Of a DNA stretch of 24,000 nucleotides, positions 1-22,299 are shown in pieces. The notes below the pieces were generated by a model. The model did no database searches and was not told the DNA's origin. It worked only from the letters and a program-made list of their open reading frames with translations. A program made the translations under genes and the position numbers. The first letter of the stretch is position 1. The number at the start of each line of letters is the position of its first letter. Origin of the DNA: Glaciecola sp. (GTDB lineage: Bacteria; Pseudomonadota; Gammaproteobacteria; Enterobacterales; Alteromonadaceae); the NCBI GenBank assembly GCA_049650345.1, contig JBARZY010000078.1, positions 47,830 to 71,829 on the forward strand, read 5' to 3'.

Positions 1-49
1 GGCCAACAATGACGCGTGGCATCAATTTAATCAAAAATTAGTGAACTAA
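1..49 (+). CDS. azoR: 3'-terminal fragment of the FMN-dependent NADH-azoreductase gene (inverted copy), cut by the window edge
   Basis: Frame 2-49 reads ANNDAWHQFNQKLVN followed by a stop. This is identical to the C-terminus of the 13514-14104 CDS and is the mirror of 13514-13562. Confidence 0.7.
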   Translation, partial: ANNDAWHQFNQKLVN

Positions 50-131
50 AGTAGCACGTAAGCACTATATATTATCACTAACGGCGGCAATTTGAATGTG
101 GCTGTTACGTGTTCCTAGTTGAGTGTGATGT

Positions 132-158
132 AAGCCCCGCTGTTAGCGGGGCTTTTTT
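132..158 (+). terminator. Rho-independent terminator hairpin between azoR and the glutathione peroxidase gene (left copy)
   Basis: The stem is aagccccgc / gcggggctt with loop tgtta, followed by T6 on the + strand and preceded by A-rich sequence on the opposite strand. Confidence 0.75.
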
Positions 159-166
159 ATAGTAAC

Positions 167-733
167 TTACTTGCCAGCTTCCACGCTTGCGCCTGATGCC
201 AACGCTTTATTTATATCCACTAAAAAGTCTTCGTCTTGTGGCTTAACGCGACTGCCGTAATGTGTCACTGTTTGGCCGTCTTTACTCATAAGATATTTAT
301 TGAAGTTCCACTTCGGTGTTTTACCAGTAAGTCTTGCCAATTGCGCGTACAACGGATCGACGTCATCGTTACGCACCGAAATAGGTTCAAACATTGGGAA
401 ATTTACGCCATAAGTCAGCTCACATACCTCAGCCGTTTTGGTTTCATCGTCATATTCTTGTGCAAATGAATTTGATGGGAATCCAACCACAACTAAGCCC
501 TTGTCTTTGTAGTCACTGTATAGTTGTTCAAGACCTTCAAACTGCGGCGTAAATCCACACTTACTAGCAGTATTCACAAACAAAACTGCTTTGCCAGCAT
601 AGGCTTCACACATATTAACCACTTCTTGTGAGTTAAGCTTTCGTTTCATATGCTTTAATAAACTAGGGCACTGGTTTGCATAAGATATTGTAGTAGTGCC
701 AAGTAATAGGGCTGCGATTAATAGTCGTTTCAT
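167..733 (-). CDS. Glutathione peroxidase family protein with an N-terminal signal peptide (left copy)
   Basis: It carries the GPx signatures VNTASKCGFT (peroxidatic Cys) and GFPSNSFAQE, plus WNFNKYL. The preferred start is the ATG at 733 (MKRLLIAALLLGTTTISYA, signal-like) rather than the ORF-track start at 766. Confidence 0.85.
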   Translation of the reverse strand: MKRLLIAALLLGTTTISYANQCPSLLKHMKRKLNSQEVVNMCEAYAGKAVLFVNTASKCGFTPQFEGLEQLYSDYKDKGLVVVGFPSNSFAQEYDDETKTAEVCELTYGVNFPMFEPISVRNDDVDPLYAQLARLTGKTPKWNFNKYLMSKDGQTVTHYGSRVKPQDEDFLVDINKALASGASVEAGK

Positions 734-967
734 GTATTTTTCCGTAGAGTTAACGAGTTCAGTCATTAATAATTTGATTTTGGTAGTTTAGATCATTCCG
801 AGCTCTTGATAGTATGACTGCATAAACGCAAATATCAAAGCTGATGCTCGGGTTGATGTTTGTCGTAACAGTACAACACAGGTGCATCGCGTAGTTATCA
901 CACCATTGATACACAAATACGTTGAGGCCATTCAGTTTCTTTACATAACATTAATAAGAAAGAAGAT

Positions 968-3472
968 ATGTCAAAACAACTTAAAATAAGTGCCATCGTG
1001 GCTAGCATATGCTTAGTCGCGGCTTGTAATACCACAAATGCAAGCAAGACTGAGTCAGAAATGGCTACGCCGTATGTAATTAAAAAAGTGACACAACAAA
1101 CAGAAAATCCAACGCCGCAAGTGCTTGCTGATATTCAACTCTCAATTGAACAGATCATGTCAGATCCAGATTGGTTAGGTCGCCAGCCTCAGAGAGCTCG
1201 TTTTTCTCCTTTAGGCGACACAATTACCTATCAACGTAAACGTGAAGGCTCAGTGGTTAATGATTTGTATGCAACGCGTGCAGGAAATGGAAATGGCGAA
1301 GTGGTGCCGTTTGCACAGATGCACGCACTTTCTCATAGTCAATTAATTACTGATAACGATCTTCCGTTTGTTGCTTGGTTATATGAAGGAAACGTGTTTG
1401 TCCAAGACAAAACCAGTAAGGTCATCAAACAACTATCTAAAGATGCATATGCTGCTCGTAATTTAGCTTTTTATGAAAATACTGAACGAGGTATAAGCGG
1501 AGTATCCTTTCAACGTGGCAACAGTTTTTATATTATTGACGTTAACACAGGTGTGCAATCTCAACTGTTTGCGTGGCAATTTGCAGAAGCGCCCAAAGGG
1601 CTCACGCCACCGGCAGACTATATTGCCGATCAACAGCAACAATTAATTAAATACGTTCAAGTGCAACGCAATAATCGTCAAGCAAGGTTTGATTATGAGC
1701 AACAAAAACAGGGCGCTGACAACACTATTATGGCAACGCAGTTGTATTTTAATAAAGGATATGAAACCGTATTTGCCAGTGTGTCGCCAAATGGTAACTA
1801 CGCCATAATTGCCACACGTGAAGATAAGCCAACGCGCAGCGAAAACGATATTATGCCCGATTACATCGAAGAAAATGGTCGTATTAAATCGCAATCTGTT
1901 CGCAAGCGTGTAGCAGATGCTGAGCCCGAGTCGCATCAGCTTTATTTTGTAGATGTTAACAAGGGCTCATACACGCCTTTAAGTTACGCATCGTTACCGG
2001 GCTACAACGAAGATGTATTAGCACAGGTAAAACAAGAAAATGCTAAGGCAAAAGGCGAGACGTATACGGTGAACCGTTTGCCCCGGGATATTGGCTTAAT
2101 GTACTACGGCTATGCAACCGAGCCTCCTATTAAATGGCACGATTCAAGCACATATGTAGCGCTAATGATTGAGGCATGGGATAACAAAGACCGTTGGATA
2201 GTAAGTGTTGACGTAAATAACCCTGCTTTAACTAACCAACATAGACTGCATGACAGTGCATGGGTTAACTATCGTTACAATCAGTTTGGTTGGTTTAATG
2301 ATCAAGCGCGCTTATATTTACTCAGCGAAGAGTCTGGCTATTCGCATCTGTACAGCAAAGCATTAAATGGCAAATTGACGCCAATTACCCAAGGTCGCTT
2401 TGTGGTAAATGACGTTGTACTGAGTCAAGATGACGCCAAATTTTATTATAAAGCTAATGTGAAACACCCAGGCATTTACGAAATATATCAGGTGTCTTCA
2501 ACAGGTGGCGATGCAACGGCACTGACTGATTTAAATGGCATGACCGATTTTGTATTAAGCCCAAATGAAAAAGAATTACTGCTAACTCACTCATCGTTGG
2601 CGATGCCACCAGAATTATATACCCTAGATTTAAACACTAACGCGCCGCCGACACAGCTCACCAACACCGTTAGCGATGCATTTTTATCAATTGATTGGAC
2701 TGTACCCACCATTGTGCCCATTGCATCGAGCCATACTGAACAACCTATTTATTCAAGGGTTTACACGCCTTCAGCCACTAGCACTGAAAAACAAAAAGCT
2801 GTGGTATTTACTCACGGTGCGGGCTATTTACAAAATGCACATTTAGGTTGGTCTGGTTATTTCAGAGAATTTATGTTCCATAGCTTCTTAGTGAGTAAAG
2901 GCTATGTTGTACTTGATATGGATTACCGAGCTTCTGCAGGCTATGGTCGCGATTGGCGCACCGCCATTTATCGACAAATGGGCACCCCAGAAGTAGAGGA
3001 TTTGAAAGACGGCGTAAATTGGCTAGTTAATAATGCGAATGTTGATGCAAAGCGTGTGGGCACTTATGGTGGATCGTATGGTGGCTTTTTAACCTTTATG
3101 TCGTTGTTCACCGAGCCTGATTTATTTCAAGCAGGTGCGGCAATACGCCCGGTATCTGATTGGGCGCACTATAACGTTCCGTATACTTCAAACATACTCA
3201 ATACGCCTGATGTTGACCCTATTGCATACGAGCGCAGTTCGCCCATATATTTTGCTGAAGGTTTAACCAAGCCATTGTTAATCAACGCGCCCATGGTTGA
3301 CGATAACGTATTTTTTGTAGATGTAGTTAGGTTAGTACAACGTCTTATTGAGCTTGAAAAACCGCATTTTGAAACCGCGATTTACCCAGTAGAGCCACAT
3401 GGTTTTGTACAGCCAAGTTCGTGGCTAGATGAATACAGACGTATATTTAAATTATTTGAAGAAAATTTATAA
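968..3472 (+). CDS. S9 family (prolyl oligopeptidase / dipeptidyl peptidase-like) serine peptidase, predicted lipoprotein (left copy)
   Basis: The protein is 834 aa. The N-terminus ends in the lipobox LVAAC. The C-terminal alpha/beta-hydrolase domain has a GGSYGG nucleophile elbow, DDNV (candidate Asp) and EPHGF (candidate His). A long N-terminal beta-propeller-like region precedes it. Confidence 0.85.
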   Translation: MSKQLKISAIVASICLVAACNTTNASKTESEMATPYVIKKVTQQTENPTPQVLADIQLSIEQIMSDPDWLGRQPQRARFSPLGDTITYQRKREGSVVNDLYATRAGNGNGEVVPFAQMHALSHSQLITDNDLPFVAWLYEGNVFVQDKTSKVIKQLSKDAYAARNLAFYENTERGISGVSFQRGNSFYIIDVNTGVQSQLFAWQFAEAPKGLTPPADYIADQQQQLIKYVQVQRNNRQARFDYEQQKQGADNTIMATQLYFNKGYETVFASVSPNGNYAIIATREDKPTRSENDIMPDYIEENGRIKSQSVRKRVADAEPESHQLYFVDVNKGSYTPLSYASLPGYNEDVLAQVKQENAKAKGETYTVNRLPRDIGLMYYGYATEPPIKWHDSSTYVALMIEAWDNKDRWIVSVDVNNPALTNQHRLHDSAWVNYRYNQFGWFNDQARLYLLSEESGYSHLYSKALNGKLTPITQGRFVVNDVVLSQDDAKFYYKANVKHPGIYEIYQVSSTGGDATALTDLNGMTDFVLSPNEKELLLTHSSLAMPPELYTLDLNTNAPPTQLTNTVSDAFLSIDWTVPTIVPIASSHTEQPIYSRVYTPSATSTEKQKAVVFTHGAGYLQNAHLGWSGYFREFMFHSFLVSKGYVVLDMDYRASAGYGRDWRTAIYRQMGTPEVEDLKDGVNWLVNNANVDAKRVGTYGGSYGGFLTFMSLFTEPDLFQAGAAIRPVSDWAHYNVPYTSNILNTPDVDPIAYERSSPIYFAEGLTKPLLINAPMVDDNVFFVDVVRLVQRLIELEKPHFETAIYPVEPHGFVQPSSWLDEYRRIFKLFEENL

Positions 3473-3482
3473 AAAACGTCAC

Positions 3483-3511
3483 AAAAAACGCAGTGTATAC
3501 TGCGTTTTTTT
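3483..3511. terminator. Bidirectional rho-independent terminator between the convergent peptidase and rhomboid genes (left copy)
   Basis: The structure is A6, cgcagt, loop gtat, actgcg, T7. The symmetric A and T runs would allow termination on both strands. Confidence 0.8.
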
Positions 3512-3518
3512 ATGGGCA

Positions 3519-4115
3519 TTAGATGGTTGATGGTTTATGTAACCTAACACTAGGTAGCAAAACACCCAACATTATGCCCGCAGTGGCACCGTATAAATGC
3601 GCATCAATCGCCACGGAGGCACCGATTAAATTAGCCATAAAATCGTTAGTGCTGAAGAAGCGCTCGTCAATTAGTTTAATGATTAGGCCTGCCAATAACA
3701 AATATGCGCTAACACGCTTGTGTTTGAAATCTTGTATTATGCCCCATGCAAACACACCATGTAACACACCCGACAAACCCACATACGCATTTAAATGAGG
3801 GCTTGCTAGCCACACCAATATCGACACAAATAAACTAGTAATCACAAAAACTGCTAAATAATTGCGCGCACGGTAATACTCGCCGTGCAATAACCATAAT
3901 AAAAATAGGCCTGCTAGATTGACAGCCAAATGATACGTATTAGTGTGCAAAAAGTGCGCGCTTAACAATCGCCACCATTGATGTTGTGCAATACCTTGTC
4001 GTGTGAAGTCTAGGTATTCTGTAACATAAGTGGGCAGGGTATATGCCACCAAACTTAATACCGCCACCACTATAATAGGTATAAATTGTGATGATTTTGT
4101 TGGCAAGTCGCCCAT
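3519..4115 (-). CDS. Rhomboid family intramembrane serine protease, short 6-TM form, possibly rhombosortase (RrtA-like) (left copy)
   Basis: The protein is 198 aa and polytopic. It has WRLLSAHFLHTNTYHLAVNL (the rhomboid WR/H..H..N block), GLSGVLHG (GxSG catalytic Ser) and AHLYGATAG (catalytic His). The small size and lack of extra domains fit rhombosortase. Confidence 0.8.
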   Translation of the reverse strand: MGDLPTKSSQFIPIIVVAVLSLVAYTLPTYVTEYLDFTRQGIAQHQWWRLLSAHFLHTNTYHLAVNLAGLFLLWLLHGEYYRARNYLAVFVITSLFVSILVWLASPHLNAYVGLSGVLHGVFAWGIIQDFKHKRVSAYLLLAGLIIKLIDERFFSTNDFMANLIGASVAIDAHLYGATAGIMLGVLLPSVRLHKPSTI

Positions 4116-4235
4116 TAAATCGCCTTACTTTGTTCGGTTATAGATATATCTAAATATATAAAACAATAGTTTAGCTTTATTTACGTCTTGGGGTTAAGTA
4201 AAATTCGAGTATTCTTTAAGCATTTTCGAGTTAGC

Positions 4236-4994
4236 ATGATCAAGCAATCCCTACATAATCATATTTTGACTATTTCTATTAGCCGTATAGAAAAGAAAAA
4301 TGCACTCATTCCTGCAATGTATGATGACATGGCTCAAGCGATACTCGATGCCCCAAAAAACCAAGCAAAGGTTATTATTATAAAGGGTGAGGGCGGTATA
4401 TTCACGGCAGGTAATGATGTGGGTGAGTTTATAAAATCGGCAGAGCAAGACAATAAAGAGGTCAACGAAACGTACCGGTTTATGCAAGCTTTGTTGCACT
4501 GTAAGTTACCAGTTATTGCGCAAGTAGAAGGCTTAGCAATCGGCATCGGTTCTACCTTATTGTTGCATTGTGATTTTGTTTTAAGCGATGCTAATACAAA
4601 ATTTGCTATGCCTTTCATTAATTTAGGATTGGTCCCTGAATACGCATCCAGCTATATTGTTCCCAGAGTTGCGGGAAGGCTAAAGGCGGCTGAGCTCTTG
4701 ATGTTAGGAGAGGTTTTTTCTGCGCAAATGGCGCAAGAGTGTGGGTTTGTTTCTCGTATTTACAAAGAGAACTTGTCCGAGCAGGTATGGGATTTAGCAT
4801 GTAAACTGGCGTCGAAACCTGCCGCTGCCTTACAGCAAACCAAAGCCTTACTACAGCCAAATATTGACGACATAGCACAACATATCGACACTGAGTTAAG
4901 CGTATTTGTAAGCGCGATGCAAAGCGAACAAGCAAAAGAAGCATTCAATGCATTTATAGAAAAACGGGCGGTAAATAATGAAGTGTTTAAATAG
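4236..4994 (+). CDS. Enoyl-CoA hydratase/isomerase (crotonase) family protein (left copy)
   Basis: The crotonase fold is indicated by ISRIEKKNAL, GEGGIFTAGNDV and VAQVEGLAIGIGSTLLLHCDF (oxyanion-hole region). The preferred start is the ATG at 4236 (MIKQSL...) rather than the TTG at 4188. Confidence 0.85.
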   Translation: MIKQSLHNHILTISISRIEKKNALIPAMYDDMAQAILDAPKNQAKVIIIKGEGGIFTAGNDVGEFIKSAEQDNKEVNETYRFMQALLHCKLPVIAQVEGLAIGIGSTLLLHCDFVLSDANTKFAMPFINLGLVPEYASSYIVPRVAGRLKAAELLMLGEVFSAQMAQECGFVSRIYKENLSEQVWDLACKLASKPAAALQQTKALLQPNIDDIAQHIDTELSVFVSAMQSEQAKEAFNAFIEKRAVNNEVFK

Positions 4995-6750
4995 GCCAGC
5001 TAGTAAGCTGTTTAGCTGCGCAGTGGCGTTGGGTTTGGGTCTACTTGGCGCATCAGTTTATGCACAAAGCAGCAAAAACCTTGAGGATAGAGAGCCAGAA
5101 GCTGCAACAGGTGTTCAGCAAAAAGCGTTCGATAGCACTAACAATTACATGGTAGTTGCAGCAAACCCTTATGCAGCATGGGCGGGTAAACAAATCATAG
5201 AGCAGGGTGGCAGTGCAATAGATGCTGCGGTAGCTATTCAAGCAATGTTAACCTTGGTTGAACCACAATCATCAGGTATTGGTGGCGGTGCTTTTATTAT
5301 GTATTGGGACAACACCAAACAAAAGTTGCACACCTTTGATGGCCGCGAAACAGCACCAAAAGCCAGCAACCCTTATATATTTTTGGAAAACGGCGAGCCA
5401 ATGGCGTGGCGTGATGCCGTTGTAGGCGGTAAATCGGTTGGCGTACCAGGTGTATTGAGAGCACTTGATATGGCACATAAAAAGTTTGGTAACTTAGCGT
5501 GGAAAGACCTTTTCACTGACACCATTAAGCAATCACGAGAAGGTTTTGTGGTATCTGAGCGCTTAGCGAAATTGATTGCACTTGATTATCACCCCGGTTT
5601 AAATAAATTCACCTCTGCCAGTAATTACTTCAAACCTAATGGGGTTGGGTTAAAAGCCGGCACTTTACAGAAAAATCCTCTATTAGCGACTACTCTGCAA
5701 AAAATAGCCTTAGGTGGTGCTGATGCATTCTATACGGGTAGTATTCCTGAAAACATTGCGAAAACCGTGCGTACAGCATCTGTCAACCCAGGCCTGCTTA
5801 GCGCTGACGATTTTGCGAATTATCGCGCAATTGAGCGAAGACCTATGTGTAATCCTTATCGAGCATATAAAATATGTGGTATGGCGCCGCCTAGCTCTGG
5901 GGGCGTATCGGTGTATAAAATTCTAAAATCGCTAGAACGTTTTGAATTATCAAAGTACACCCACAATAGCGTAGAATTCGCACATTTATTCACGCAATCG
6001 AGTGCCTTGGCATTTGCCGATAGAGCCCATTATATAGCCGATTTAGACTACTTAGATATGTCTGTGGTTCCGCTAGTGAATCCAGGTTATATTCGCAGGC
6101 GAGCTGCAGACATCAGTTTAGCTGTGCCTTTTGAAAAGGCATCAGCTGGTAAACCTTATGCAAGCATGCAGTTTGGCAAAGATAACGCTTATGAACGCAT
6201 GAGCACGAGTCACATATCCATTGTTGATAAACAAGGCAATGCGGTATCCATGACATCAAGCATTGAGTTTATGTTTGGCTCAGGTTTAATGGTGGAAGGG
6301 TTTTTGTTAAACAACCAATTAACCGATTTTTCGCTTAATCCCATGCGCGATAACACGCCAGTGCTTAATAGGGTGCAACCTGACAAGCGTCCTCGCAGCG
6401 CAATGAGCCCAACTATGGTGTTTGATGACAGTGGTAAATTACATTTGGTCGTGGGTTCGCCTGGCGGAAGTCGTATCATTAATTATGTGGCACAGACAAT
6501 TTTTAATGTACTTGATTTTGGTCTAGATATTCAAACAGCGATATCTGCCCCGCGTATCTCAAACCGAAATGGCGCGACCACCTTAGAGGCCAATACCAGT
6601 ATTACAAGGTTAAAATCGGAACTTGAAAATAAAGGGCATGAGATCAACGTTAGAAATTTGAATAGCGGACTGCATGGGATTCAGATTATTGATGGCGTAT
6701 TGCATGGAGGCGCTGATCCCCGTCGTGAAGGCGTTGCTGTAGGACAATAA
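4978..6750 (+). CDS. ggt: Gamma-glutamyltransferase (periplasmic, autoprocessing Ntn hydrolase) (left copy)
   Basis: The protein is 590 aa with a signal peptide (...LGLLGASVYAQ). The motif MS|TSHISIVD contains the nucleophile Thr (compare E. coli TTHYSVVD). It also has GSPGGSRII and SSGIGGGAF. It overlaps the upstream crotonase gene by 17 nt. Confidence 0.92.
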   Translation: MKCLNRPASKLFSCAVALGLGLLGASVYAQSSKNLEDREPEAATGVQQKAFDSTNNYMVVAANPYAAWAGKQIIEQGGSAIDAAVAIQAMLTLVEPQSSGIGGGAFIMYWDNTKQKLHTFDGRETAPKASNPYIFLENGEPMAWRDAVVGGKSVGVPGVLRALDMAHKKFGNLAWKDLFTDTIKQSREGFVVSERLAKLIALDYHPGLNKFTSASNYFKPNGVGLKAGTLQKNPLLATTLQKIALGGADAFYTGSIPENIAKTVRTASVNPGLLSADDFANYRAIERRPMCNPYRAYKICGMAPPSSGGVSVYKILKSLERFELSKYTHNSVEFAHLFTQSSALAFADRAHYIADLDYLDMSVVPLVNPGYIRRRAADISLAVPFEKASAGKPYASMQFGKDNAYERMSTSHISIVDKQGNAVSMTSSIEFMFGSGLMVEGFLLNNQLTDFSLNPMRDNTPVLNRVQPDKRPRSAMSPTMVFDDSGKLHLVVGSPGGSRIINYVAQTIFNVLDFGLDIQTAISAPRISNRNGATTLEANTSITRLKSELENKGHEINVRNLNSGLHGIQIIDGVLHGGADPRREGVAVGQ

Positions 6751-6767
6751 GATATCAATTGCGTATT

Positions 6768-6795
6768 AAAAAAGGGAGCAATTGCTCCCTTTTTT
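6768..6795. terminator. ggt intrinsic terminator hairpin, which is also the symmetry axis of the 13.5-kb palindrome
   Basis: The structure is A6 (6768-6773), gggagc (6774-6779), loop aatt (6780-6783), gctccc (6784-6789), T6 (6790-6795). The axis falls between 6781 and 6782, in the middle of the loop. Confidence 0.85.
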
Positions 6796-6812
6796 AATAC
6801 GCAATTGATATC

Positions 6813-8585
6813 TTATTGTCCTACAGCAACGCCTTCACGACGGGGATCAGCGCCTCCATGCAATACGCCATCAATAATCTGAATCCCATGCAGTCCGCTA
6901 TTCAAATTTCTAACGTTGATCTCATGCCCTTTATTTTCAAGTTCCGATTTTAACCTTGTAATACTGGTATTGGCCTCTAAGGTGGTCGCGCCATTTCGGT
7001 TTGAGATACGCGGGGCAGATATCGCTGTTTGAATATCTAGACCAAAATCAAGTACATTAAAAATTGTCTGTGCCACATAATTAATGATACGACTTCCGCC
7101 AGGCGAACCCACGACCAAATGTAATTTACCACTGTCATCAAACACCATAGTTGGGCTCATTGCGCTGCGAGGACGCTTGTCAGGTTGCACCCTATTAAGC
7201 ACTGGCGTGTTATCGCGCATGGGATTAAGCGAAAAATCGGTTAATTGGTTGTTTAACAAAAACCCTTCCACCATTAAACCTGAGCCAAACATAAACTCAA
7301 TGCTTGATGTCATGGATACCGCATTGCCTTGTTTATCAACAATGGATATGTGACTCGTGCTCATGCGTTCATAAGCGTTATCTTTGCCAAACTGCATGCT
7401 TGCATAAGGTTTACCAGCTGATGCCTTTTCAAAAGGCACAGCTAAACTGATGTCTGCAGCTCGCCTGCGAATATAACCTGGATTCACTAGCGGAACCACA
7501 GACATATCTAAGTAGTCTAAATCGGCTATATAATGGGCTCTATCGGCAAATGCCAAGGCACTCGATTGCGTGAATAAATGTGCGAATTCTACGCTATTGT
7601 GGGTGTACTTTGATAATTCAAAACGTTCTAGCGATTTTAGAATTTTATACACCGATACGCCCCCAGAGCTAGGCGGCGCCATACCACATATTTTATATGC
7701 TCGATAAGGATTACACATAGGTCTTCGCTCAATTGCGCGATAATTCGCAAAATCGTCAGCGCTAAGCAGGCCTGGGTTGACAGATGCTGTACGCACGGTT
7801 TTCGCAATGTTTTCAGGAATACTACCCGTATAGAATGCATCAGCACCACCTAAGGCTATTTTTTGCAGAGTAGTCGCTAATAGAGGATTTTTCTGTAAAG
7901 TGCCGGCTTTTAACCCAACCCCATTAGGTTTGAAGTAATTACTGGCAGAGGTGAATTTATTTAAACCGGGGTGATAATCAAGTGCAATCAATTTCGCTAA
8001 GCGCTCAGATACCACAAAACCTTCTCGTGATTGCTTAATGGTGTCAGTGAAAAGGTCTTTCCACGCTAAGTTACCAAACTTTTTATGTGCCATATCAAGT
8101 GCTCTCAATACACCTGGTACGCCAACCGATTTACCGCCTACAACGGCATCACGCCACGCCATTGGCTCGCCGTTTTCCAAAAATATATAAGGGTTGCTGG
8201 CTTTTGGTGCTGTTTCGCGGCCATCAAAGGTGTGCAACTTTTGTTTGGTGTTGTCCCAATACATAATAAAAGCACCGCCACCAATACCTGATGATTGTGG
8301 TTCAACCAAGGTTAACATTGCTTGAATAGCTACCGCAGCATCTATTGCACTGCCACCCTGCTCTATGATTTGTTTACCCGCCCATGCTGCATAAGGGTTT
8401 GCTGCAACTACCATGTAATTGTTAGTGCTATCGAACGCTTTTTGCTGAACACCTGTTGCAGCTTCTGGCTCTCTATCCTCAAGGTTTTTGCTGCTTTGTG
8501 CATAAACTGATGCGCCAAGTAGACCCAAACCCAACGCCACTGCGCAGCTAAACAGCTTACTAGCTGGCCTATTTAAACACTTCAT
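6813..8585 (-). CDS. ggt: Gamma-glutamyltransferase (right copy, identical)
   Basis: The 590-aa translation is identical to that of 4978-6750. Confidence 0.92.
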   Translation of the reverse strand: MKCLNRPASKLFSCAVALGLGLLGASVYAQSSKNLEDREPEAATGVQQKAFDSTNNYMVVAANPYAAWAGKQIIEQGGSAIDAAVAIQAMLTLVEPQSSGIGGGAFIMYWDNTKQKLHTFDGRETAPKASNPYIFLENGEPMAWRDAVVGGKSVGVPGVLRALDMAHKKFGNLAWKDLFTDTIKQSREGFVVSERLAKLIALDYHPGLNKFTSASNYFKPNGVGLKAGTLQKNPLLATTLQKIALGGADAFYTGSIPENIAKTVRTASVNPGLLSADDFANYRAIERRPMCNPYRAYKICGMAPPSSGGVSVYKILKSLERFELSKYTHNSVEFAHLFTQSSALAFADRAHYIADLDYLDMSVVPLVNPGYIRRRAADISLAVPFEKASAGKPYASMQFGKDNAYERMSTSHISIVDKQGNAVSMTSSIEFMFGSGLMVEGFLLNNQLTDFSLNPMRDNTPVLNRVQPDKRPRSAMSPTMVFDDSGKLHLVVGSPGGSRIINYVAQTIFNVLDFGLDIQTAISAPRISNRNGATTLEANTSITRLKSELENKGHEINVRNLNSGLHGIQIIDGVLHGGADPRREGVAVGQ

Positions 8586-9327
8586 TATTTACCGCCCGTT
8601 TTTCTATAAATGCATTGAATGCTTCTTTTGCTTGTTCGCTTTGCATCGCGCTTACAAATACGCTTAACTCAGTGTCGATATGTTGTGCTATGTCGTCAAT
8701 ATTTGGCTGTAGTAAGGCTTTGGTTTGCTGTAAGGCAGCGGCAGGTTTCGACGCCAGTTTACATGCTAAATCCCATACCTGCTCGGACAAGTTCTCTTTG
8801 TAAATACGAGAAACAAACCCACACTCTTGCGCCATTTGCGCAGAAAAAACCTCTCCTAACATCAAGAGCTCAGCCGCCTTTAGCCTTCCCGCAACTCTGG
8901 GAACAATATAGCTGGATGCGTATTCAGGGACCAATCCTAAATTAATGAAAGGCATAGCAAATTTTGTATTAGCATCGCTTAAAACAAAATCACAATGCAA
9001 CAATAAGGTAGAACCGATGCCGATTGCTAAGCCTTCTACTTGCGCAATAACTGGTAACTTACAGTGCAACAAAGCTTGCATAAACCGGTACGTTTCGTTG
9101 ACCTCTTTATTGTCTTGCTCTGCCGATTTTATAAACTCACCCACATCATTACCTGCCGTGAATATACCGCCCTCACCCTTTATAATAATAACCTTTGCTT
9201 GGTTTTTTGGGGCATCGAGTATCGCTTGAGCCATGTCATCATACATTGCAGGAATGAGTGCATTTTTCTTTTCTATACGGCTAATAGAAATAGTCAAAAT
9301 ATGATTATGTAGGGATTGCTTGATCAT
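8569..9327 (-). CDS. Enoyl-CoA hydratase/isomerase family protein (right copy, identical)
   Basis: This is the mirror of 4236-4994, with the ATG at 9327. Confidence 0.85.
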   Translation of the reverse strand: MIKQSLHNHILTISISRIEKKNALIPAMYDDMAQAILDAPKNQAKVIIIKGEGGIFTAGNDVGEFIKSAEQDNKEVNETYRFMQALLHCKLPVIAQVEGLAIGIGSTLLLHCDFVLSDANTKFAMPFINLGLVPEYASSYIVPRVAGRLKAAELLMLGEVFSAQMAQECGFVSRIYKENLSEQVWDLACKLASKPAAALQQTKALLQPNIDDIAQHIDTELSVFVSAMQSEQAKEAFNAFIEKRAVNNEVFK

Positions 9328-9447
9328 GCTAACTCGAAAATGCTTAAAGAATACTCGAATTTTACTTAACCCCAAGACGTAAATAAAGCTAAACTATTGT
9401 TTTATATATTTAGATATATCTATAACCGAACAAAGTAAGGCGATTTA

Positions 9448-10044
9448 ATGGGCGACTTGCCAACAAAATCATCACAATTTATACCTATTATAGTGGTGGC
9501 GGTATTAAGTTTGGTGGCATATACCCTGCCCACTTATGTTACAGAATACCTAGACTTCACACGACAAGGTATTGCACAACATCAATGGTGGCGATTGTTA
9601 AGCGCGCACTTTTTGCACACTAATACGTATCATTTGGCTGTCAATCTAGCAGGCCTATTTTTATTATGGTTATTGCACGGCGAGTATTACCGTGCGCGCA
9701 ATTATTTAGCAGTTTTTGTGATTACTAGTTTATTTGTGTCGATATTGGTGTGGCTAGCAAGCCCTCATTTAAATGCGTATGTGGGTTTGTCGGGTGTGTT
9801 ACATGGTGTGTTTGCATGGGGCATAATACAAGATTTCAAACACAAGCGTGTTAGCGCATATTTGTTATTGGCAGGCCTAATCATTAAACTAATTGACGAG
9901 CGCTTCTTCAGCACTAACGATTTTATGGCTAATTTAATCGGTGCCTCCGTGGCGATTGATGCGCATTTATACGGTGCCACTGCGGGCATAATGTTGGGTG
10001 TTTTGCTACCTAGTGTTAGGTTACATAAACCATCAACCATCTAA
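9448..10044 (+). CDS. Rhomboid family intramembrane serine protease, possibly rhombosortase (right copy, identical)
   Basis: This is the mirror of 3519-4115 with an identical translation. Confidence 0.8.
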   Translation: MGDLPTKSSQFIPIIVVAVLSLVAYTLPTYVTEYLDFTRQGIAQHQWWRLLSAHFLHTNTYHLAVNLAGLFLLWLLHGEYYRARNYLAVFVITSLFVSILVWLASPHLNAYVGLSGVLHGVFAWGIIQDFKHKRVSAYLLLAGLIIKLIDERFFSTNDFMANLIGASVAIDAHLYGATAGIMLGVLLPSVRLHKPSTI

Positions 10045-10051
10045 TGCCCAT

Positions 10052-10080
10052 AAAAAAACGCAGTATACACTGCGTTTTTT
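10052..10080. terminator. Bidirectional rho-independent terminator (right copy)
   Basis: This is the mirror of 3483-3511: A7, cgcagt, atac, actgcg, T6. Confidence 0.8.
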
Positions 10081-10090
10081 GTGACGTTTT

Positions 10091-12595
10091 TTATAAATTT
10101 TCTTCAAATAATTTAAATATACGTCTGTATTCATCTAGCCACGAACTTGGCTGTACAAAACCATGTGGCTCTACTGGGTAAATCGCGGTTTCAAAATGCG
10201 GTTTTTCAAGCTCAATAAGACGTTGTACTAACCTAACTACATCTACAAAAAATACGTTATCGTCAACCATGGGCGCGTTGATTAACAATGGCTTGGTTAA
10301 ACCTTCAGCAAAATATATGGGCGAACTGCGCTCGTATGCAATAGGGTCAACATCAGGCGTATTGAGTATGTTTGAAGTATACGGAACGTTATAGTGCGCC
10401 CAATCAGATACCGGGCGTATTGCCGCACCTGCTTGAAATAAATCAGGCTCGGTGAACAACGACATAAAGGTTAAAAAGCCACCATACGATCCACCATAAG
10501 TGCCCACACGCTTTGCATCAACATTCGCATTATTAACTAGCCAATTTACGCCGTCTTTCAAATCCTCTACTTCTGGGGTGCCCATTTGTCGATAAATGGC
10601 GGTGCGCCAATCGCGACCATAGCCTGCAGAAGCTCGGTAATCCATATCAAGTACAACATAGCCTTTACTCACTAAGAAGCTATGGAACATAAATTCTCTG
10701 AAATAACCAGACCAACCTAAATGTGCATTTTGTAAATAGCCCGCACCGTGAGTAAATACCACAGCTTTTTGTTTTTCAGTGCTAGTGGCTGAAGGCGTGT
10801 AAACCCTTGAATAAATAGGTTGTTCAGTATGGCTCGATGCAATGGGCACAATGGTGGGTACAGTCCAATCAATTGATAAAAATGCATCGCTAACGGTGTT
10901 GGTGAGCTGTGTCGGCGGCGCGTTAGTGTTTAAATCTAGGGTATATAATTCTGGTGGCATCGCCAACGATGAGTGAGTTAGCAGTAATTCTTTTTCATTT
11001 GGGCTTAATACAAAATCGGTCATGCCATTTAAATCAGTCAGTGCCGTTGCATCGCCACCTGTTGAAGACACCTGATATATTTCGTAAATGCCTGGGTGTT
11101 TCACATTAGCTTTATAATAAAATTTGGCGTCATCTTGACTCAGTACAACGTCATTTACCACAAAGCGACCTTGGGTAATTGGCGTCAATTTGCCATTTAA
11201 TGCTTTGCTGTACAGATGCGAATAGCCAGACTCTTCGCTGAGTAAATATAAGCGCGCTTGATCATTAAACCAACCAAACTGATTGTAACGATAGTTAACC
11301 CATGCACTGTCATGCAGTCTATGTTGGTTAGTTAAAGCAGGGTTATTTACGTCAACACTTACTATCCAACGGTCTTTGTTATCCCATGCCTCAATCATTA
11401 GCGCTACATATGTGCTTGAATCGTGCCATTTAATAGGAGGCTCGGTTGCATAGCCGTAGTACATTAAGCCAATATCCCGGGGCAAACGGTTCACCGTATA
11501 CGTCTCGCCTTTTGCCTTAGCATTTTCTTGTTTTACCTGTGCTAATACATCTTCGTTGTAGCCCGGTAACGATGCGTAACTTAAAGGCGTGTATGAGCCC
11601 TTGTTAACATCTACAAAATAAAGCTGATGCGACTCGGGCTCAGCATCTGCTACACGCTTGCGAACAGATTGCGATTTAATACGACCATTTTCTTCGATGT
11701 AATCGGGCATAATATCGTTTTCGCTGCGCGTTGGCTTATCTTCACGTGTGGCAATTATGGCGTAGTTACCATTTGGCGACACACTGGCAAATACGGTTTC
11801 ATATCCTTTATTAAAATACAACTGCGTTGCCATAATAGTGTTGTCAGCGCCCTGTTTTTGTTGCTCATAATCAAACCTTGCTTGACGATTATTGCGTTGC
11901 ACTTGAACGTATTTAATTAATTGTTGCTGTTGATCGGCAATATAGTCTGCCGGTGGCGTGAGCCCTTTGGGCGCTTCTGCAAATTGCCACGCAAACAGTT
12001 GAGATTGCACACCTGTGTTAACGTCAATAATATAAAAACTGTTGCCACGTTGAAAGGATACTCCGCTTATACCTCGTTCAGTATTTTCATAAAAAGCTAA
12101 ATTACGAGCAGCATATGCATCTTTAGATAGTTGTTTGATGACCTTACTGGTTTTGTCTTGGACAAACACGTTTCCTTCATATAACCAAGCAACAAACGGA
12201 AGATCGTTATCAGTAATTAATTGACTATGAGAAAGTGCGTGCATCTGTGCAAACGGCACCACTTCGCCATTTCCATTTCCTGCACGCGTTGCATACAAAT
12301 CATTAACCACTGAGCCTTCACGTTTACGTTGATAGGTAATTGTGTCGCCTAAAGGAGAAAAACGAGCTCTCTGAGGCTGGCGACCTAACCAATCTGGATC
12401 TGACATGATCTGTTCAATTGAGAGTTGAATATCAGCAAGCACTTGCGGCGTTGGATTTTCTGTTTGTTGTGTCACTTTTTTAATTACATACGGCGTAGCC
12501 ATTTCTGACTCAGTCTTGCTTGCATTTGTGGTATTACAAGCCGCGACTAAGCATATGCTAGCCACGATGGCACTTATTTTAAGTTGTTTTGACAT
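10091..12595 (-). CDS. S9 family serine peptidase, predicted lipoprotein (right copy, identical)
   Basis: The 834-aa translation is identical to that of 968-3472. Confidence 0.85.
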   Translation of the reverse strand: MSKQLKISAIVASICLVAACNTTNASKTESEMATPYVIKKVTQQTENPTPQVLADIQLSIEQIMSDPDWLGRQPQRARFSPLGDTITYQRKREGSVVNDLYATRAGNGNGEVVPFAQMHALSHSQLITDNDLPFVAWLYEGNVFVQDKTSKVIKQLSKDAYAARNLAFYENTERGISGVSFQRGNSFYIIDVNTGVQSQLFAWQFAEAPKGLTPPADYIADQQQQLIKYVQVQRNNRQARFDYEQQKQGADNTIMATQLYFNKGYETVFASVSPNGNYAIIATREDKPTRSENDIMPDYIEENGRIKSQSVRKRVADAEPESHQLYFVDVNKGSYTPLSYASLPGYNEDVLAQVKQENAKAKGETYTVNRLPRDIGLMYYGYATEPPIKWHDSSTYVALMIEAWDNKDRWIVSVDVNNPALTNQHRLHDSAWVNYRYNQFGWFNDQARLYLLSEESGYSHLYSKALNGKLTPITQGRFVVNDVVLSQDDAKFYYKANVKHPGIYEIYQVSSTGGDATALTDLNGMTDFVLSPNEKELLLTHSSLAMPPELYTLDLNTNAPPTQLTNTVSDAFLSIDWTVPTIVPIASSHTEQPIYSRVYTPSATSTEKQKAVVFTHGAGYLQNAHLGWSGYFREFMFHSFLVSKGYVVLDMDYRASAGYGRDWRTAIYRQMGTPEVEDLKDGVNWLVNNANVDAKRVGTYGGSYGGFLTFMSLFTEPDLFQAGAAIRPVSDWAHYNVPYTSNILNTPDVDPIAYERSSPIYFAEGLTKPLLINAPMVDDNVFFVDVVRLVQRLIELEKPHFETAIYPVEPHGFVQPSSWLDEYRRIFKLFEENL

Positions 12596-12829
12596 ATCTT
12601 CTTTCTTATTAATGTTATGTAAAGAAACTGAATGGCCTCAACGTATTTGTGTATCAATGGTGTGATAACTACGCGATGCACCTGTGTTGTACTGTTACGA
12701 CAAACATCAACCCGAGCATCAGCTTTGATATTTGCGTTTATGCAGTCATACTATCAAGAGCTCGGAATGATCTAAACTACCAAAATCAAATTATTAATGA
12801 CTGAACTCGTTAACTCTACGGAAAAATAC

Positions 12830-13396
12830 ATGAAACGACTATTAATCGCAGCCCTATTACTTGGCACTACTACAATATCTTATGCAAACCAGTGCCCTAG
12901 TTTATTAAAGCATATGAAACGAAAGCTTAACTCACAAGAAGTGGTTAATATGTGTGAAGCCTATGCTGGCAAAGCAGTTTTGTTTGTGAATACTGCTAGT
13001 AAGTGTGGATTTACGCCGCAGTTTGAAGGTCTTGAACAACTATACAGTGACTACAAAGACAAGGGCTTAGTTGTGGTTGGATTCCCATCAAATTCATTTG
13101 CACAAGAATATGACGATGAAACCAAAACGGCTGAGGTATGTGAGCTGACTTATGGCGTAAATTTCCCAATGTTTGAACCTATTTCGGTGCGTAACGATGA
13201 CGTCGATCCGTTGTACGCGCAATTGGCAAGACTTACTGGTAAAACACCGAAGTGGAACTTCAATAAATATCTTATGAGTAAAGACGGCCAAACAGTGACA
13301 CATTACGGCAGTCGCGTTAAGCCACAAGACGAAGACTTTTTAGTGGATATAAATAAAGCGTTGGCATCAGGCGCAAGCGTGGAAGCTGGCAAGTAA
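12830..13396 (+). CDS. Glutathione peroxidase family protein with signal peptide (right copy, identical)
   Basis: This is the mirror of 167-733, with the ATG at 12830. Confidence 0.85.
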   Translation: MKRLLIAALLLGTTTISYANQCPSLLKHMKRKLNSQEVVNMCEAYAGKAVLFVNTASKCGFTPQFEGLEQLYSDYKDKGLVVVGFPSNSFAQEYDDETKTAEVCELTYGVNFPMFEPISVRNDDVDPLYAQLARLTGKTPKWNFNKYLMSKDGQTVTHYGSRVKPQDEDFLVDINKALASGASVEAGK

Positions 13397-13404
13397 GTTA
13401 CTAT

Positions 13405-13431
13405 AAAAAAGCCCCGCTAACAGCGGGGCTT
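13405..13431 (-). terminator. Rho-independent terminator downstream of azoR, in the convergent gap with the gpx-like gene (right copy)
   Basis: This is the mirror of 132-158. The T-tract follows the hairpin on the minus strand, which is the azoR sense strand. Confidence 0.75.
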
Positions 13432-13513
13432 ACATCACACTCAACTAGGAACACGTAACAGCCACATTCAAATTGCCGCCGTTAGTGATAATATATAGTG
13501 CTTACGTGCTACT

Positions 13514-14104
13514 TTAGTTCACTAATTTTTGATTAAATTGATGCCACGCGTCATTGTTGGCCTCTTCACCCATGGCAAGCCCTTCAATATAGTAAAATGT
13601 CACGTTGGTTAAGCCAATAAACGCCAAAAAATCACGTACAAATGTGGTTTGTGAATCCATCGCCGTACCCTCGTATTTACCACCTCGGGCAGCAATAACC
13701 GTGACTTTTTTACCTTCTAACAAACCAATCGGACCGTTTTCAGTGTATTGGAACGTTACGCCAGCACGTGCAATACGGTCAAAGTATGCTTTAAGTGTTG
13801 AGGGTACGCCAAAATTGTACATTGGTATAGCCAAGACAATTTCGTCAGCTTGTTGCACTTGCGCCACATAATTGTCTGAAATTGCCGCTAGGGCTTTTTG
13901 CTCTTCGTCTCGTTGCTCTTCTGCTATGCCCCATGCTTGCATTTCAAGCCCCTGTAAATGAGGAATATTGTCGGCGTGTACATCAACAGACGTAAGTTGA
14001 ATCGTTTCGTTTACTTGTAATGCATCAACATAACGTTGAGCCGCTTTATTGCTATTGCTATTTTCGCCCTGCAGGCTTGAATTAATCACTAATACTTGTT
14101 TCAT
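13514..14104 (-). CDS. azoR: FMN-dependent NADH-azoreductase
   Basis: It is strongly similar to E. coli AzoR, for example PMYNFGVPSTLKAYFDRIARAGVTFQYTENGP.GLL.GKK and an N-terminal MKQVLVINSS. The preferred start is the ATG at 14104, which has GAGG upstream, rather than the GTG at 14119. Confidence 0.88.
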   Translation of the reverse strand: MKQVLVINSSLQGENSNSNKAAQRYVDALQVNETIQLTSVDVHADNIPHLQGLEMQAWGIAEEQRDEEQKALAAISDNYVAQVQQADEIVLAIPMYNFGVPSTLKAYFDRIARAGVTFQYTENGPIGLLEGKKVTVIAARGGKYEGTAMDSQTTFVRDFLAFIGLTNVTFYYIEGLAMGEEANNDAWHQFNQKLVN

Positions 14105-14240
14105 GTTTGTATGCCTCACCTTAGTTAGCTATATTTATTTGTATATAGTGACTTTCATAATAGCCTTATATTTTAGAATAAAAATAGCTAAAATTAGCAC
14201 AAAACAACCTATTAATTAGAACGATTTGCAACACATATAT

Positions 14241-15500
14241 TTAGCTGACAAGGTAGAAGGCTTGTTGCATATCGTCAATAATATCCTCAGCCGCCTCAAT
14301 ACCAATAGACATTCTCACTAAGGTCTCAGAAATCCCCATTTCTTTACGTTGCTTAGGCCCATTTTCATAAAATATGGTAGTGGCAACGGGCAAAATTAAG
14401 GTGCGAGTATCACCTAAATGAGTCGCACTAATAACCAAATCTAGGGCATTGATAAATGCCCGCATGTTGACATGTGGCTCAAGTTCAAAGCTTAATATGC
14501 CGCCAAATTCTCCATTGAATAGGTGTTGCGCACGCTGATGTTGAGGATGGTCAGGCAGTCCAGGGTAATAAACCGTACTGACATGCGCTTGCTGATGCAA
14601 AAACTTGGCAATCGCTAACGCATTTTCACTGGTTTTTTGCATCCGCATGGATAAGGTTTCAAGCCCTACAGAAATAAGATGTGTTGATTGCGGCGCTAGG
14701 GTTGCCCCCATATCACGCAAGCCTTTTTTACGAATTTGAGTAATGCCCCATTGTTCGGATGGTGCGTTTTTGTACACATCAAGTATATTGTCATACTGTT
14801 GCCAATTAAAATTACCCATATCTACTACTACGCCACCAAGCACATTGCCATGACCACCAATATATTTGGTTAACGACGTTGTTAACAAATTAGCGTGGAT
14901 GGTGTTTGCGTCTAGCATTACAGATGGCGTCATGGTGTTGTCTACCACAAACAATAGCTGTAAGCGTTGACACAATTTACCAATGTTAATTAAATCGGCT
15001 ACCTGCGTACCCGGGTTAGCAATGGTTTCACTAAATACCAATTTTGTATTTTCAACAATAACCTGCTCAACCTTGTCAGCACTGCTCACGTCAACGTACG
15101 TCACCTTAATGCCGAAGCGCGTAAGTGAATCGATAAAACTGCGCGTATTGCCAAATAAATACTTACTGACCACAATATGGTCACCCGCTTGCAACAAAGA
15201 AAACATAACCGCACTTATAGCTGCCATGCCTGTTGAAAAGGTGGCCGCAGTCATACCGCCTTCTAATTCGGCAAGTATATTTTGTAACGCCAACGCTGAA
15301 CCTGATGAGCTACGAGAGTATACATGACCGGCTTTTTTGCCTTGAAACACCGCTTCTAAATCAGCCACATCGTCAAATTCAAATAACACTGAATTATTGG
15401 TCGCTTCATGTACCGCGCCGTGTTGGGGTTTGTTAATTAAGCGGTCAGCGTGTACCAGTTGTGACGCAATATTGCGCTGAGCGATTGATTTATTTTTCAC
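14241..15500 (-). CDS. Cys/Met-metabolism PLP-dependent enzyme (cystathionine gamma-synthase / O-acyl-homoserine sulfhydrylase family)
   Basis: The protein is 419 aa. SLTKYIGGHGNVLGG is the PLP-lysine S-x-T-K...GH motif, and YSR...LE.R.A.LEG-like and DNTMTP blocks are present. The start is GTG with AAGGA upstream. The exact substrate cannot be called from sequence. Confidence 0.8.
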   Translation of the reverse strand: MKNKSIAQRNIASQLVHADRLINKPQHGAVHEATNNSVLFEFDDVADLEAVFQGKKAGHVYSRSSSGSALALQNILAELEGGMTAATFSTGMAAISAVMFSLLQAGDHIVVSKYLFGNTRSFIDSLTRFGIKVTYVDVSSADKVEQVIVENTKLVFSETIANPGTQVADLINIGKLCQRLQLLFVVDNTMTPSVMLDANTIHANLLTTSLTKYIGGHGNVLGGVVVDMGNFNWQQYDNILDVYKNAPSEQWGITQIRKKGLRDMGATLAPQSTHLISVGLETLSMRMQKTSENALAIAKFLHQQAHVSTVYYPGLPDHPQHQRAQHLFNGEFGGILSFELEPHVNMRAFINALDLVISATHLGDTRTLILPVATTIFYENGPKQRKEMGISETLVRMSIGIEAAEDIIDDMQQAFYLVS

Positions 15501-15736
15501 TTTTATTCCTTGATAACCAATAAAGCAGATATAAAGAGCTTGAAAACTTGCTTCTTGACTCCTTTAAACACCGTTGCAACACAAAATTTGTACAACGACG
15601 CATACCATTGACCTACAAGTATGAATGTTACCATACAATCGCGCTTTGGTAATTTTCAAGGCTCAGAATAAAACACTATGAATTAGCTTATTTTTGTTGT
15701 TGCAGTATTTGTTGTGTGAATTACACTAGCATCCTT

Positions 15737-16504: not shown

Positions 16505-16625
16505 TTGCTTTTTTACCAAATATAAAGCAGCTAGGTTTTATTCAGACCAATGCCACGCAGTGGCATTATGACCAAATGCGATATCGCATTTTATTATTTA
16601 GCTCTTCTAAAAGGAAACATTACTC

Positions 16626-17816: not shown

Positions 17817-17826
17817 TACTTGTTAT

Positions 17827-17849
17827 CAGAGTGCACCCAGTGCACTCTG
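17827..17849 (+). terminator. Candidate intrinsic terminator after the aminotransferase gene
   Basis: A perfect 10-bp stem cagagtgcac / gtgcactctg with loop cca lies 10 nt after the stop. The downstream sequence (catcttactttgttg) is only moderately T-rich. Confidence 0.5.
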
Positions 17850-18024
17850 CATCTTACTTTGTTGTCACATTTTCTTCATACAACCGTCACCCACTAGTCA
17901 CTAATACTTCACCTTTGCGTAATGCACCTGTTTTACCCTGTTAAAAAATGGTGTTTAGACCTTTTCCGCTATTGCTAATTAGACAAATACTTTTGTATGG
18001 CATAGCACTAAAAATAGGTAAATT

Positions 18025-19719: not shown

Positions 19720-19730
19720 TAAGAGGGGTA

Positions 19731-20492: not shown

Positions 20493-20513
20493 TTTGTTAT
20501 CCTTATATAATGT

Positions 20514-21281: not shown

Positions 21282-21283
21282 TT

Positions 21284-22288: not shown

Positions 22289-22299
22289 ATTGTTCTCCT

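Follow-up and report, generated by a model that had tools for sequence, protein, structure and literature searches.

Long perfect palindromes without a spacer are substrates of SbcCD, are cleaved and are not stably kept in bacteria. The 24,000-nt stretch of Glaciecola sp. DNA analyzed here (the window) begins with such a palindrome, and the question raised by this locus is whether the structure is part of the genome of the organism or a product of the way in which the contig was obtained. We consider it to be a foldback artefact, of whatever kind, nucleated at a native 50-bp hairpin, with a probability of about 0.9. An earlier note made from the sequence alone had put a foldback artefact first and a recent duplication second, and this ranking is supported by the different continuation past the ggt terminator in a sibling genome, the MAG GCA_042096235.1 (Glaciecola sp., contig JBELLY010000014.1).

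The earlier note had described a perfect spacerless palindrome of at least 13.5 kb in which five complete genes and the 3′ end of azoR are mirrored, and both parts of this description have been borne out. In a base-by-base comparison of window positions 1-6781 with the reverse complement of 6782-13562, no mismatches and no indels have been found over the 6781 bp, and this identity of the arms is far beyond chance. The symmetry axis lies between 6781 and 6782 with no spacer, and the paired coordinates sum to 13563. The size of at least 13.5 kb is a lower bound, as the left arm reaches window position 1 and its outer end is out of view. To the right of the palindrome the window runs on for at least 10.4 kb (13563-24000). 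Neither repeated 14-mers nor any other marking feature have been found at the outer end of the right arm (13562/13563). The arm may end there because the window was cut at an arbitrary point, because strain variation makes a branch in a metagenome graph or because a read ended, and the last of these would favour a physical foldback molecule.

Each arm comprises five complete ORFs with mirrored twins and the last 49 nt of an azoR-like gene, the only part of that gene inside the palindrome (13514-13562, with the mirror fragment at 1-49 on the + strand). The gene identities proposed earlier are backed by Pfam and NCBIfam, with two refinements: the presumed rhomboid protein is a rhombosortase, with a score above the TIGR03902 cut-off, and the name azoR has to be weakened to azoR-like, since FMN-dependent NADH-azoreductase is the best family but matches below the curated cut-off. 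The enoyl-CoA hydratase has been called as a protein of 252 aa in the sibling, and the NCBIfam crotonase families match it below their cut-offs.

Table 1 Features of the palindromic region in window coordinates, with the mirrored twin of each gene
Feature	Position	Strand	Remarks
Left arm	1-6781		Inverted copy of 6782-13562, running to the window start
Right arm	6782-13562		Native copy, contiguous with 13563-24000; collinear with sibling contig JBELLY010000014.1
Perfect inverted repeat, 50 bp, AATTGCGTATTAAAAAAGGGAGCA followed by ATTGCTCCCTTTTTTAATACGCAATT	6757-6806		Native; the repeat centre is the axis of the giant palindrome
52-mer CAATTGCGTATTAAAAAAGGGAGCAATTGCTCCCTTTTTTAATACGCAATTG	6756-6807		C, the 50-nt repeat and G; sole word telling the palindrome from the native genome
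ggt, gamma-glutamyltransferase, 590 aa	6813-8585	-	TIGR00066 425.5 bits (above cut-off), Pfam G_glu_transpept; twin 4978-6750 (+)
Enoyl-CoA hydratase/crotonase family, 268 aa from TTG	8569-9375	-	Pfam ECH_1; twin 4188-4994 (+)
Rhombosortase, 198 aa	9448-10044	+	TIGR03902 165 bits against a cut-off of 84; twin 3519-4115 (-)
S9-family peptidase, 834 aa	10091-12595	-	Pfam DPPIV_N and Peptidase_S9; twin 968-3472 (+)
Glutathione peroxidase-like, 199 aa	12797-13396	+	Pfam GSHPx; NCBIfam glutathione peroxidase below cut-off; twin 167-766 (-)
azoR-like FMN-dependent NADH-azoreductase, full copy	13514-14119	-	Pfam Flavodoxin_2, FMN_red; best NCBIfam matches are azoreductases, below cut-offs

The earlier reading of the axis had made no mention of a native repeat and has to be amended on this point, as the axis falls exactly on the midpoint of a perfect inverted repeat, 50 bp long, that is native to the locus. 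The identical 50-bp sequence is found in the sibling (locus L006, positions 11780-11829), where it lies between ggt and a convergent 153-aa ORF, and it looks like the ggt terminator hairpin. As DNA it folds into a hairpin of -24.6 kcal/mol (z = -11.5), the strongest in the locus, and as RNA it forms a 22-bp stem. Within the 22.5-kb sibling locus it is the longest perfect close inverted repeat, the next perfect one having arms of 12 nt. This position of the axis bears on the mechanisms listed in the earlier note, namely a missing SMRTbell adapter or an unsplit nanopore template and complement, in which it would be a coincidence that the end of a fragment lay at the repeat centre. Reads of this sort do exist in ONT genomic DNA (PMC12338684), and they yield spacerless palindromes and often extend contig ends; however, the axis would have had to match to the base the single 50-bp perfect repeat of the locus, roughly 1 chance in 10^4, and HiFi data are virtually free of foldback reads (PMC12338684). 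Such a random-end origin is therefore hardly probable. Since the axis sits on the centre of the native repeat, mechanisms nucleated by the repeat itself (graph mis-traversal or snap-back self-priming) are to be preferred over random fragment ends.

The genomic context of the repeat is provided by the sibling, with which window positions 6757-22595 are collinear at 99.956% identity, with seven SNPs. Three of the seven (9707, 9720 and 9980) fall in the rhombosortase gene and lead to the substitutions S87L and I178T; no exact-protein record has been found for this window-specific variant. Four strain-specific SNP alleles are present in both arms, mirrored. Past the axis the sibling shares just 25 nt with the window and then continues into unrelated sequence encoding the 153-aa ORF, a GST-like gene, a 149-aa ORF, PALP, AAA and others, all of them absent from the window. 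We infer that the left arm is an artefactual copy, because it differs from the right arm at no position and stands where the sibling (loci L006 and L009) has its native downstream genes. The region downstream of ggt in close relatives, a comparison proposed in the earlier note, thus favours an artefact, as the ggt terminator is followed by other unique sequence in a MAG that is 99.96% identical.

More distant relatives and other samples have also been searched. In a GGT protein scan of genome contigs the relatives did not exceed 65% identity. Two Glaciecola MAG loci (L001 and L002), with a GGT 65% identical, carry ggt followed by the same downstream genes as in the sibling (149-aa ORF, PALP, AAA and 392 aa), from which we take this arrangement to be ancestral. 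Correspondence of the 153-aa ORF of the sibling to a 152-aa ORF beside ggt in L001 was considered and rejected (BLASTP E = 1.9); the 152-aa ORF matches the 149-aa ORF of the sibling instead. Exact-protein matches for GGT, S9 peptidase, GSHPx and ADH have been found only in the sibling MAG and in Logan ERR12652137, and a 36-mer from the ggt 3′ end is absent from metagenome contigs. A homologue search with the GST-like protein of the sibling yielded no third assembly, the next-best match being 56% identical. Sample SRR28062645 contains a 2.5-kb contig of the native downstream region, which ends 39 nt short of the repeat and does not reach the axis.

The sibling also bears on the idea that the palindrome is a covalently closed hairpin telomere of a linear replicon (of the protelomerase type) that has been read around its end. 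Reading around such a telomere gives a spacerless perfect palindrome at what could be a contig end; in the sibling, however, the corresponding site lies well inside a contig (56.6 kb) and is flanked on either side by ordinary chromosomal genes. Moreover, the Pfam calls of the region include no protelomerase and no phage or plasmid genes, megablast gave no plasmid match and the 28-mer core of the hairpin is absent from viral contigs. The telomere reading, the least probable of all those considered here, has been rejected, as the context in the sibling contradicts it and neither a replicon end there nor, among the Pfam calls of the region, a resolvase has been found.

How a native repeat of 50 bp may give rise to the palindrome can be followed in the words that cross the axis. 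For k up to 51 none of these words is novel in comparison with the native sibling, both strands being considered, and at k = 52 exactly one is (Table 1); in its native counterpart the 50-nt repeat runs into ACCCTGCTTGGG. When a de Bruijn graph is built from the native sequence, the unitig halts for k up to 49 at a node of in-degree 2 within the repeat, and an out-branch to A (native) or G (foldback) is seen at k = 51. When the junction between the repeat and the downstream sequence was left unsequenced in a simulation, the unitig folded back for k up to 51, and the simulated k = 33 unitig, compared base by base, equals window positions 1-18585 except for four SNPs, each counted twice. In Logan ERR12652137 two independent k = 31 contigs end exactly 30 nt into the repeat, one on each side, as predicted, and their stopping at the predicted node shows that real assemblers meet a branch at the repeat. 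Exact arms (at silent and intergenic sites too), a non-palindromic continuation in close relatives and a junction derivable from the native sequence, by a fold at a native repeat of length k or more, are the marks of an artefact, and all three have been found.

These results are consistent with a de Bruijn graph mis-traversal at the repeat, and we give about even odds to the palindrome having been made in silico in this way. The left arm would then not be present in the genome of the organism: the path of the assembler would leave ggt, enter the 50-bp repeat and exit along the reverse complement of its entry route. A palindrome that exceeds k in length coincides with its own reverse complement in a graph of this type, so that the fold-back exit always has the backing of k-mers at full coverage. 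Were the few k-mers linking the repeat to the true downstream sequence missing (as may happen at low coverage, common in MAGs), that branch would be lost, and the resulting “unsafe” palindromic unitig, consisting of the ggt side, the repeat and the reverse complement of the ggt side, could be taken over by later larger-k or path-extension stages. The source assembly may have been built by a mis-traversal of this kind. Against it stands the outer end of the arm at 13562/13563, with no repeat or feature to make a graph vertex, and the sibling MAG assembly went through the 50-bp repeat without trouble, so the error is not inevitable.

Precedents for such contigs have been published. Palindromic contigs produced by SPAdes (n = 81) have been judged to be assembly errors (PMC9455707), SAG assemblies have been shown to contain palindromic contigs (bioRxiv 10.1101/2023.06.06.543983), and unsafe or palindromic unitigs arising at low coverage have been treated in theory and in tests, SPAdes and MEGAHIT emitting palindromic unitigs whole (PMC9528984). 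Like the published palindromic contigs, the window has a segment and its exact reverse complement side by side; identical genes are annotated twice, in mirror order, and the copies have not diverged. It would share with de Bruijn palindromic unitigs the inverted self-overlap in the graph combined with incomplete coverage, and the simulation reproduces its structure. Whereas the published palindromes usually occupy the whole contig, the window extends at least 10.4 kb past the right arm.

A real if lesser possibility is that the fold took place in vitro and that the molecule was then sequenced and assembled faithfully, which would still make the palindrome an artefact. A nascent or nicked strand whose end lay shortly beyond the 50-nt repeat would snap back and be extended by a polymerase, so that the strand copies itself; the enzyme could be phi29 in MDA (single cell or low biomass) or a repair or end-prep polymerase in a long-read library. 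The product would be a hairpin-joined inverted dimer which, when read through, gives a spacerless palindrome centred on the repeat. The location of the axis exactly at the centre of the strongest hairpin of the locus (-24.6 kcal/mol) agrees with this route, as does the end of the arm at an unremarkable mid-gene position, which fits the end of a read or molecule. Inversions account for more than 85% of MDA chimeras, and more than 70% of the junctions are primed at complementarities of 2-21 nt (PMC1855051), while about 0.55-0.6% of the reads in ONT genomic DNA libraries are foldbacks, thought to originate in library preparation and able to tangle assembly graphs (PMC12338684). The occurrence of palindromic contigs in SAG assemblies (bioRxiv 10.1101/2023.06.06.543983) also fits. 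With both types of molecule the window has in common an inverted self-join primed at short complementarity and a junction without adapter or spacer. It differs from the MDA chimeras in that these typically contain an intervening deletion (PMC1855051), whereas the join in the window is perfectly symmetric on the 50-bp native repeat, and from the nanopore foldbacks in that their breakpoints have not been reported on hairpin centres (PMC12338684), where the join in the window lies. Furthermore, a rare chimera should normally be outnumbered by reads that follow the native continuation, unless the contig had already ended at this point.

The same repeat could also have nucleated a genuine and very recent inverted duplication in vivo, to which we give a slim chance. 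If the DNA broke or a fork stalled at the repeat, the 3′ end would snap back and prime synthesis, and the outcome would be either a symmetric precursor of tandem inversion duplication (TID), a model reportedly put forward by Kugelberg et al. in 2010, or a giant palindrome made by replication of a break with a hairpin cap. Both models predict an axis just where it lies, at a short native inverted repeat, and zero divergence of the arms fits a very recent event. Nothing within the window contradicts it directly, as the second junction would fall to the left of position 1. A junction centred on a short native inverted repeat and identical arms are shared with the Salmonella TID model and yeast ODIRA (PMC4689423), but these take place in vivo, with a second junction and raised copy number, and bacterial centres are quickly remodelled. 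Stable products have remodelled, asymmetric centres, whereas that of the window is perfectly symmetric, which speaks against a structure that has been maintained. SbcCD acts on long perfect palindromes that have no spacer, and work on this from the Leach laboratory is listed in PMC7999016. The native arrangement is carried by the 99.96%-identical sibling and by two other samples, a trivial graph error gives the same structure, and the prior for artefacts of such shape is high (PMC12338684; PMC9455707; bioRxiv 10.1101/2023.06.06.543983; PMC9528984). Slimmer still is the chance that a newly formed inverted duplication that is still symmetric, or the replicated form of a break capped by a hairpin, arising by snap-back at the ggt terminator repeat, has been caught before remodelling of the SbcCD type.

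With a foldback artefact as the preferred explanation, the palindrome most likely has no significance as biology. Gene counts should include ggt and the S9 peptidase, rhombosortase, hydratase and peroxidase genes a single time each, and the left arm of 6.8 kb should be removed from the assembly. The locus provides a clean worked example of how a palindromic contig of several kilobases, with an inflated gene copy number, can grow out of a native perfect inverted repeat that exceeds k in length, in this case a terminator of 50 bp. As the whole claim hangs on one 52-nt junction word, it can be tested simply by searching for this word in the reads. A real palindrome would mean that a giant and unstable structure had been caught directly in a wild bacterium, which is rare; as an in vivo duplication it would increase the dosage of ggt and the other genes of the arm, those for the S9 peptidase and rhombosortase among them, and a symmetric TID precursor, otherwise only inferred, would have been captured in an environmental Glaciecola-like genome.

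A base-by-base comparison of the reverse complement of window positions 6782-13562 with positions 1-6781 revealed neither mismatches nor indels, and the two arms meet between 6781 and 6782 without a spacer. The exact mirrored arms described in the earlier note were thus confirmed, as were the twin ORFs in mirror order, every ORF of at least 100 aa in one arm having its mirrored counterpart in the other. The left arm reaches window position 1 and the length of the palindrome is a lower bound within the window. The proposed gene content of each arm (five complete genes and the azoR 3' end) also stood, with the 'rhomboid' gene refined to rhombosortase and azoR to azoR-like. The 17-nt overlap of ggt and the enoyl-CoA hydratase gene suggests an operon.

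An exact-protein look-up with GGT returned two public contigs: JBELLY010000014.1 (56.6 kb, GCA_042096235.1, NCBI name 'MAG: Glaciecola sp.'), referred to here as the sibling, and one k=31 Logan contig of ERR12652137. The sibling differs from window 6757-22595 by 7 substitutions in 15,839 nt (99.956% identity). Past the axis it tracks the window for 25 nt only; the sequence after that is ACCCTGCTTGGG..., and next come a convergent 153-aa ORF, a gene for a GST-like protein, a 149-aa ORF, genes for a PALP enzyme and an AAA ATPase, and others, none of which is present in the window. The earlier note had asked what lies downstream of ggt in close relatives, and this contig provides the answer by leaving the repeat into other genes. 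At two more distant Glaciecola MAG loci, L001 and L002 (GGT 65% identical), the genes behind ggt are homologous to the sibling's 149-aa ORF, PALP, AAA and 392-aa genes; this shared synteny indicates that the sibling's continuation is the ancestral state and that of the window the odd one out. The native downstream block is also present in a third sample, SRR28062645, with 100% identity across 2.5 kb. The 153-aa ORF and the 372-aa GST-like gene, located directly behind the repeat, between ggt and the 149-aa ORF (11828-13518 of the sibling locus L006), are missing from L001 and L002. Neither product matched NCBIfam models, and the nearest homologue of the GST-like protein in a large protein collection is just 56% identical.

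Features of the window and their coordinates
Feature	Window position (strand)	Observation
Left arm	1-6781	
Right arm	6782-13562	
Glutathione-peroxidase-like gene		Complete in each arm; family profile matches
S9 peptidase gene		Complete in each arm; DPPIV_N and Peptidase_S9
Rhombosortase (rhomboid-type protease) gene	9448-10044	Complete in each arm; NCBIfam TIGR03902, above cut-off
Enoyl-CoA hydratase family gene		Complete in each arm
ggt		Complete in each arm; TIGR00066, above cut-off
azoR-like gene		Only last 49 nt in each arm
ggt/enoyl-CoA hydratase overlap	8569-8585 (-)	Mirrored at 4978-4994
TANGO2-family protein gene, bacterial	15716-16504 (+)	Pfam PF05742 (sibling annotation); no match in NCBIfam
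Candidate bifunctional ornithine lipid synthase OlsF gene	18025-19719 (+)	564 aa, full-length match; NF052615 853 bits, cut-off 620
Short-chain dehydrogenase genes	19731-20492, 20514-21287	
218-aa ORF	20335-20991 (+)	Antisense overlap with both dehydrogenase genes; uncalled in sibling; probably not a gene

Since the sibling stops matching 25 nt past the axis, the native genome holds a 50-bp perfect inverted repeat (arms of 25 nt, gap 0), the centre of which is exactly the axis of the giant palindrome. The centre, ...GATATC AATTGCGTATTAAAAAAGGGAGCA|ATTGCTCCCTTTTTTAATACGCAATT GATATC..., lies 31 nt past the ggt stop codon, and the element looks like a bidirectional terminator, its G+C-rich stem bordered by runs of A and T; as single-stranded DNA it folds with -24.6 kcal/mol (z = -11.5). 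No other perfect close inverted repeat of the 22.5-kb sibling locus is as long; the runner-up has 12-nt arms. Plasmid and viral searches for the site and locus gave no match, and a hairpin telomere is contradicted by the internal location of the site in the sibling contig, with housekeeping genes on both sides. Foldback at a random end, through a missing SMRTbell adapter or unsplit template and complement as listed in the earlier note, is disfavoured, because it requires a fragment to end, to the base, at the midpoint of the locus's single 50-bp repeat.

When the axis region was compared with both strands of the native sibling, no novel words were found at any tested length up to 51 nt and exactly one novel 52-mer (6756-6807, C + repeat + G), so the entire 13.5-kb structure hangs on a single junction word. 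De Bruijn graphs of the native sequence were simulated for various k. At k <= 49 the unitig from ggt halts at a node of in-degree 2 within the repeat, at k = 51 an A/G out-branch appears, and at k = 55 and 77 the repeat is resolved. The halt predicted for k = 31, 5 nt past the axis, is the exact end of the ggt-side Logan contig L007 (window 6777), and the GST-side contig L010 ends at the mirror position (10372 of the sibling locus L009), which shows that the branch is encountered by real assemblers. Both contigs (ERR12652137, k=31), approaching from opposite sides, break off after exactly 30 nt of the repeat. A unitig graph disrupted by a palindrome longer than k leaves just this signature, and such paired ends are a handy general flag for palindrome-broken sites.

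A perfect palindrome longer than k is its own reverse complement in the graph. The repeat can then be entered either from ggt or from the reverse-complemented downstream side, and it can be left either towards the downstream side or towards the reverse-complemented ggt; if the junction k-mers to the downstream side were lost in a coverage gap, the unitig would fold back through the repeat. We deleted only the k-mers spanning the repeat-to-downstream junction and took the maximal unitig in the doubled graph, and at each tested k <= 51 it crossed the repeat and returned along its own reverse complement. Checked base by base, the k = 33 unitig equals the ggt side plus the reverse complement of itself and is identical to window 1-18585 save four strain SNPs, each counted twice. 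The simulated fold-back corresponds to the 'unsafe unitig' situation of Rahman and Medvedev, who also show that palindromic unitigs are output in full by SPAdes and MEGAHIT (PMC9528984). In SPAdes isolate assemblies 81 palindromic contigs have been judged assembly errors (PMC9455707), and such contigs are known from single-cell assemblies too (bioRxiv 10.1101/2023.06.06.543983).

The four arm SNPs between window and sibling (9707, 9720, 9980 and 10514) are all mirrored in the left arm, as expected if a single data set supplied one arm as a copy of the other. Of the seven SNPs in 15.8 kb, three (9707, 9720 and 9980, mirrored at 3856, 3843 and 3583) cluster in a 274-bp stretch inside the rhombosortase gene, and two of these three are nonsynonymous (S87L and I178T); the remaining four of the seven are synonymous. 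Local selection or recombination over a short tract could account for the cluster.

The same sequence would result from an in-vitro snap-back, in which a strand whose 3' end lies shortly beyond the repeat folds on itself and is extended by phi29 (MDA) or a library-prep polymerase. MDA chimeras are mainly inverted, with priming at 2-21 nt of complementarity (PMC1855051), and foldback reads constitute about 0.55-0.6% in ONT genomic DNA libraries, probably arising in library preparation (PMC12338684). What chiefly favours snap-back over the graph mechanism is the arm end, an unremarkable mid-gene spot at which no repeat was found: it would fit the end of a molecule or read, but an arbitrary cut of the window or a branch caused by strain variation in the metagenome graph would explain it equally well.

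Palindromes and tandem inversion duplications in vivo are thought to begin by snap-back at a short inverted repeat, a model reportedly put forward for the latter by Kugelberg et al. in 2010, and the location of the axis at such a repeat is compatible with a real event of this kind. A genuine inverted duplication is nevertheless very improbable, as long perfect palindromes are not stable in bacteria that have SbcCD, the centre shows no remodelling at all, the native arrangement occurs in the 99.96%-identical sibling and two other samples, and the error-free graph simulation yields the same sequence.

The evidence, strong but circumstantial, argues with a probability of about 0.9 that the palindrome is a foldback nucleated at the native 50-bp terminator palindrome and not a real genomic feature. 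The ranking of an artefact first in the earlier note is supported and sharpened by pinning the fold to this element. It is advisable to trim the left arm and to count its genes only once.
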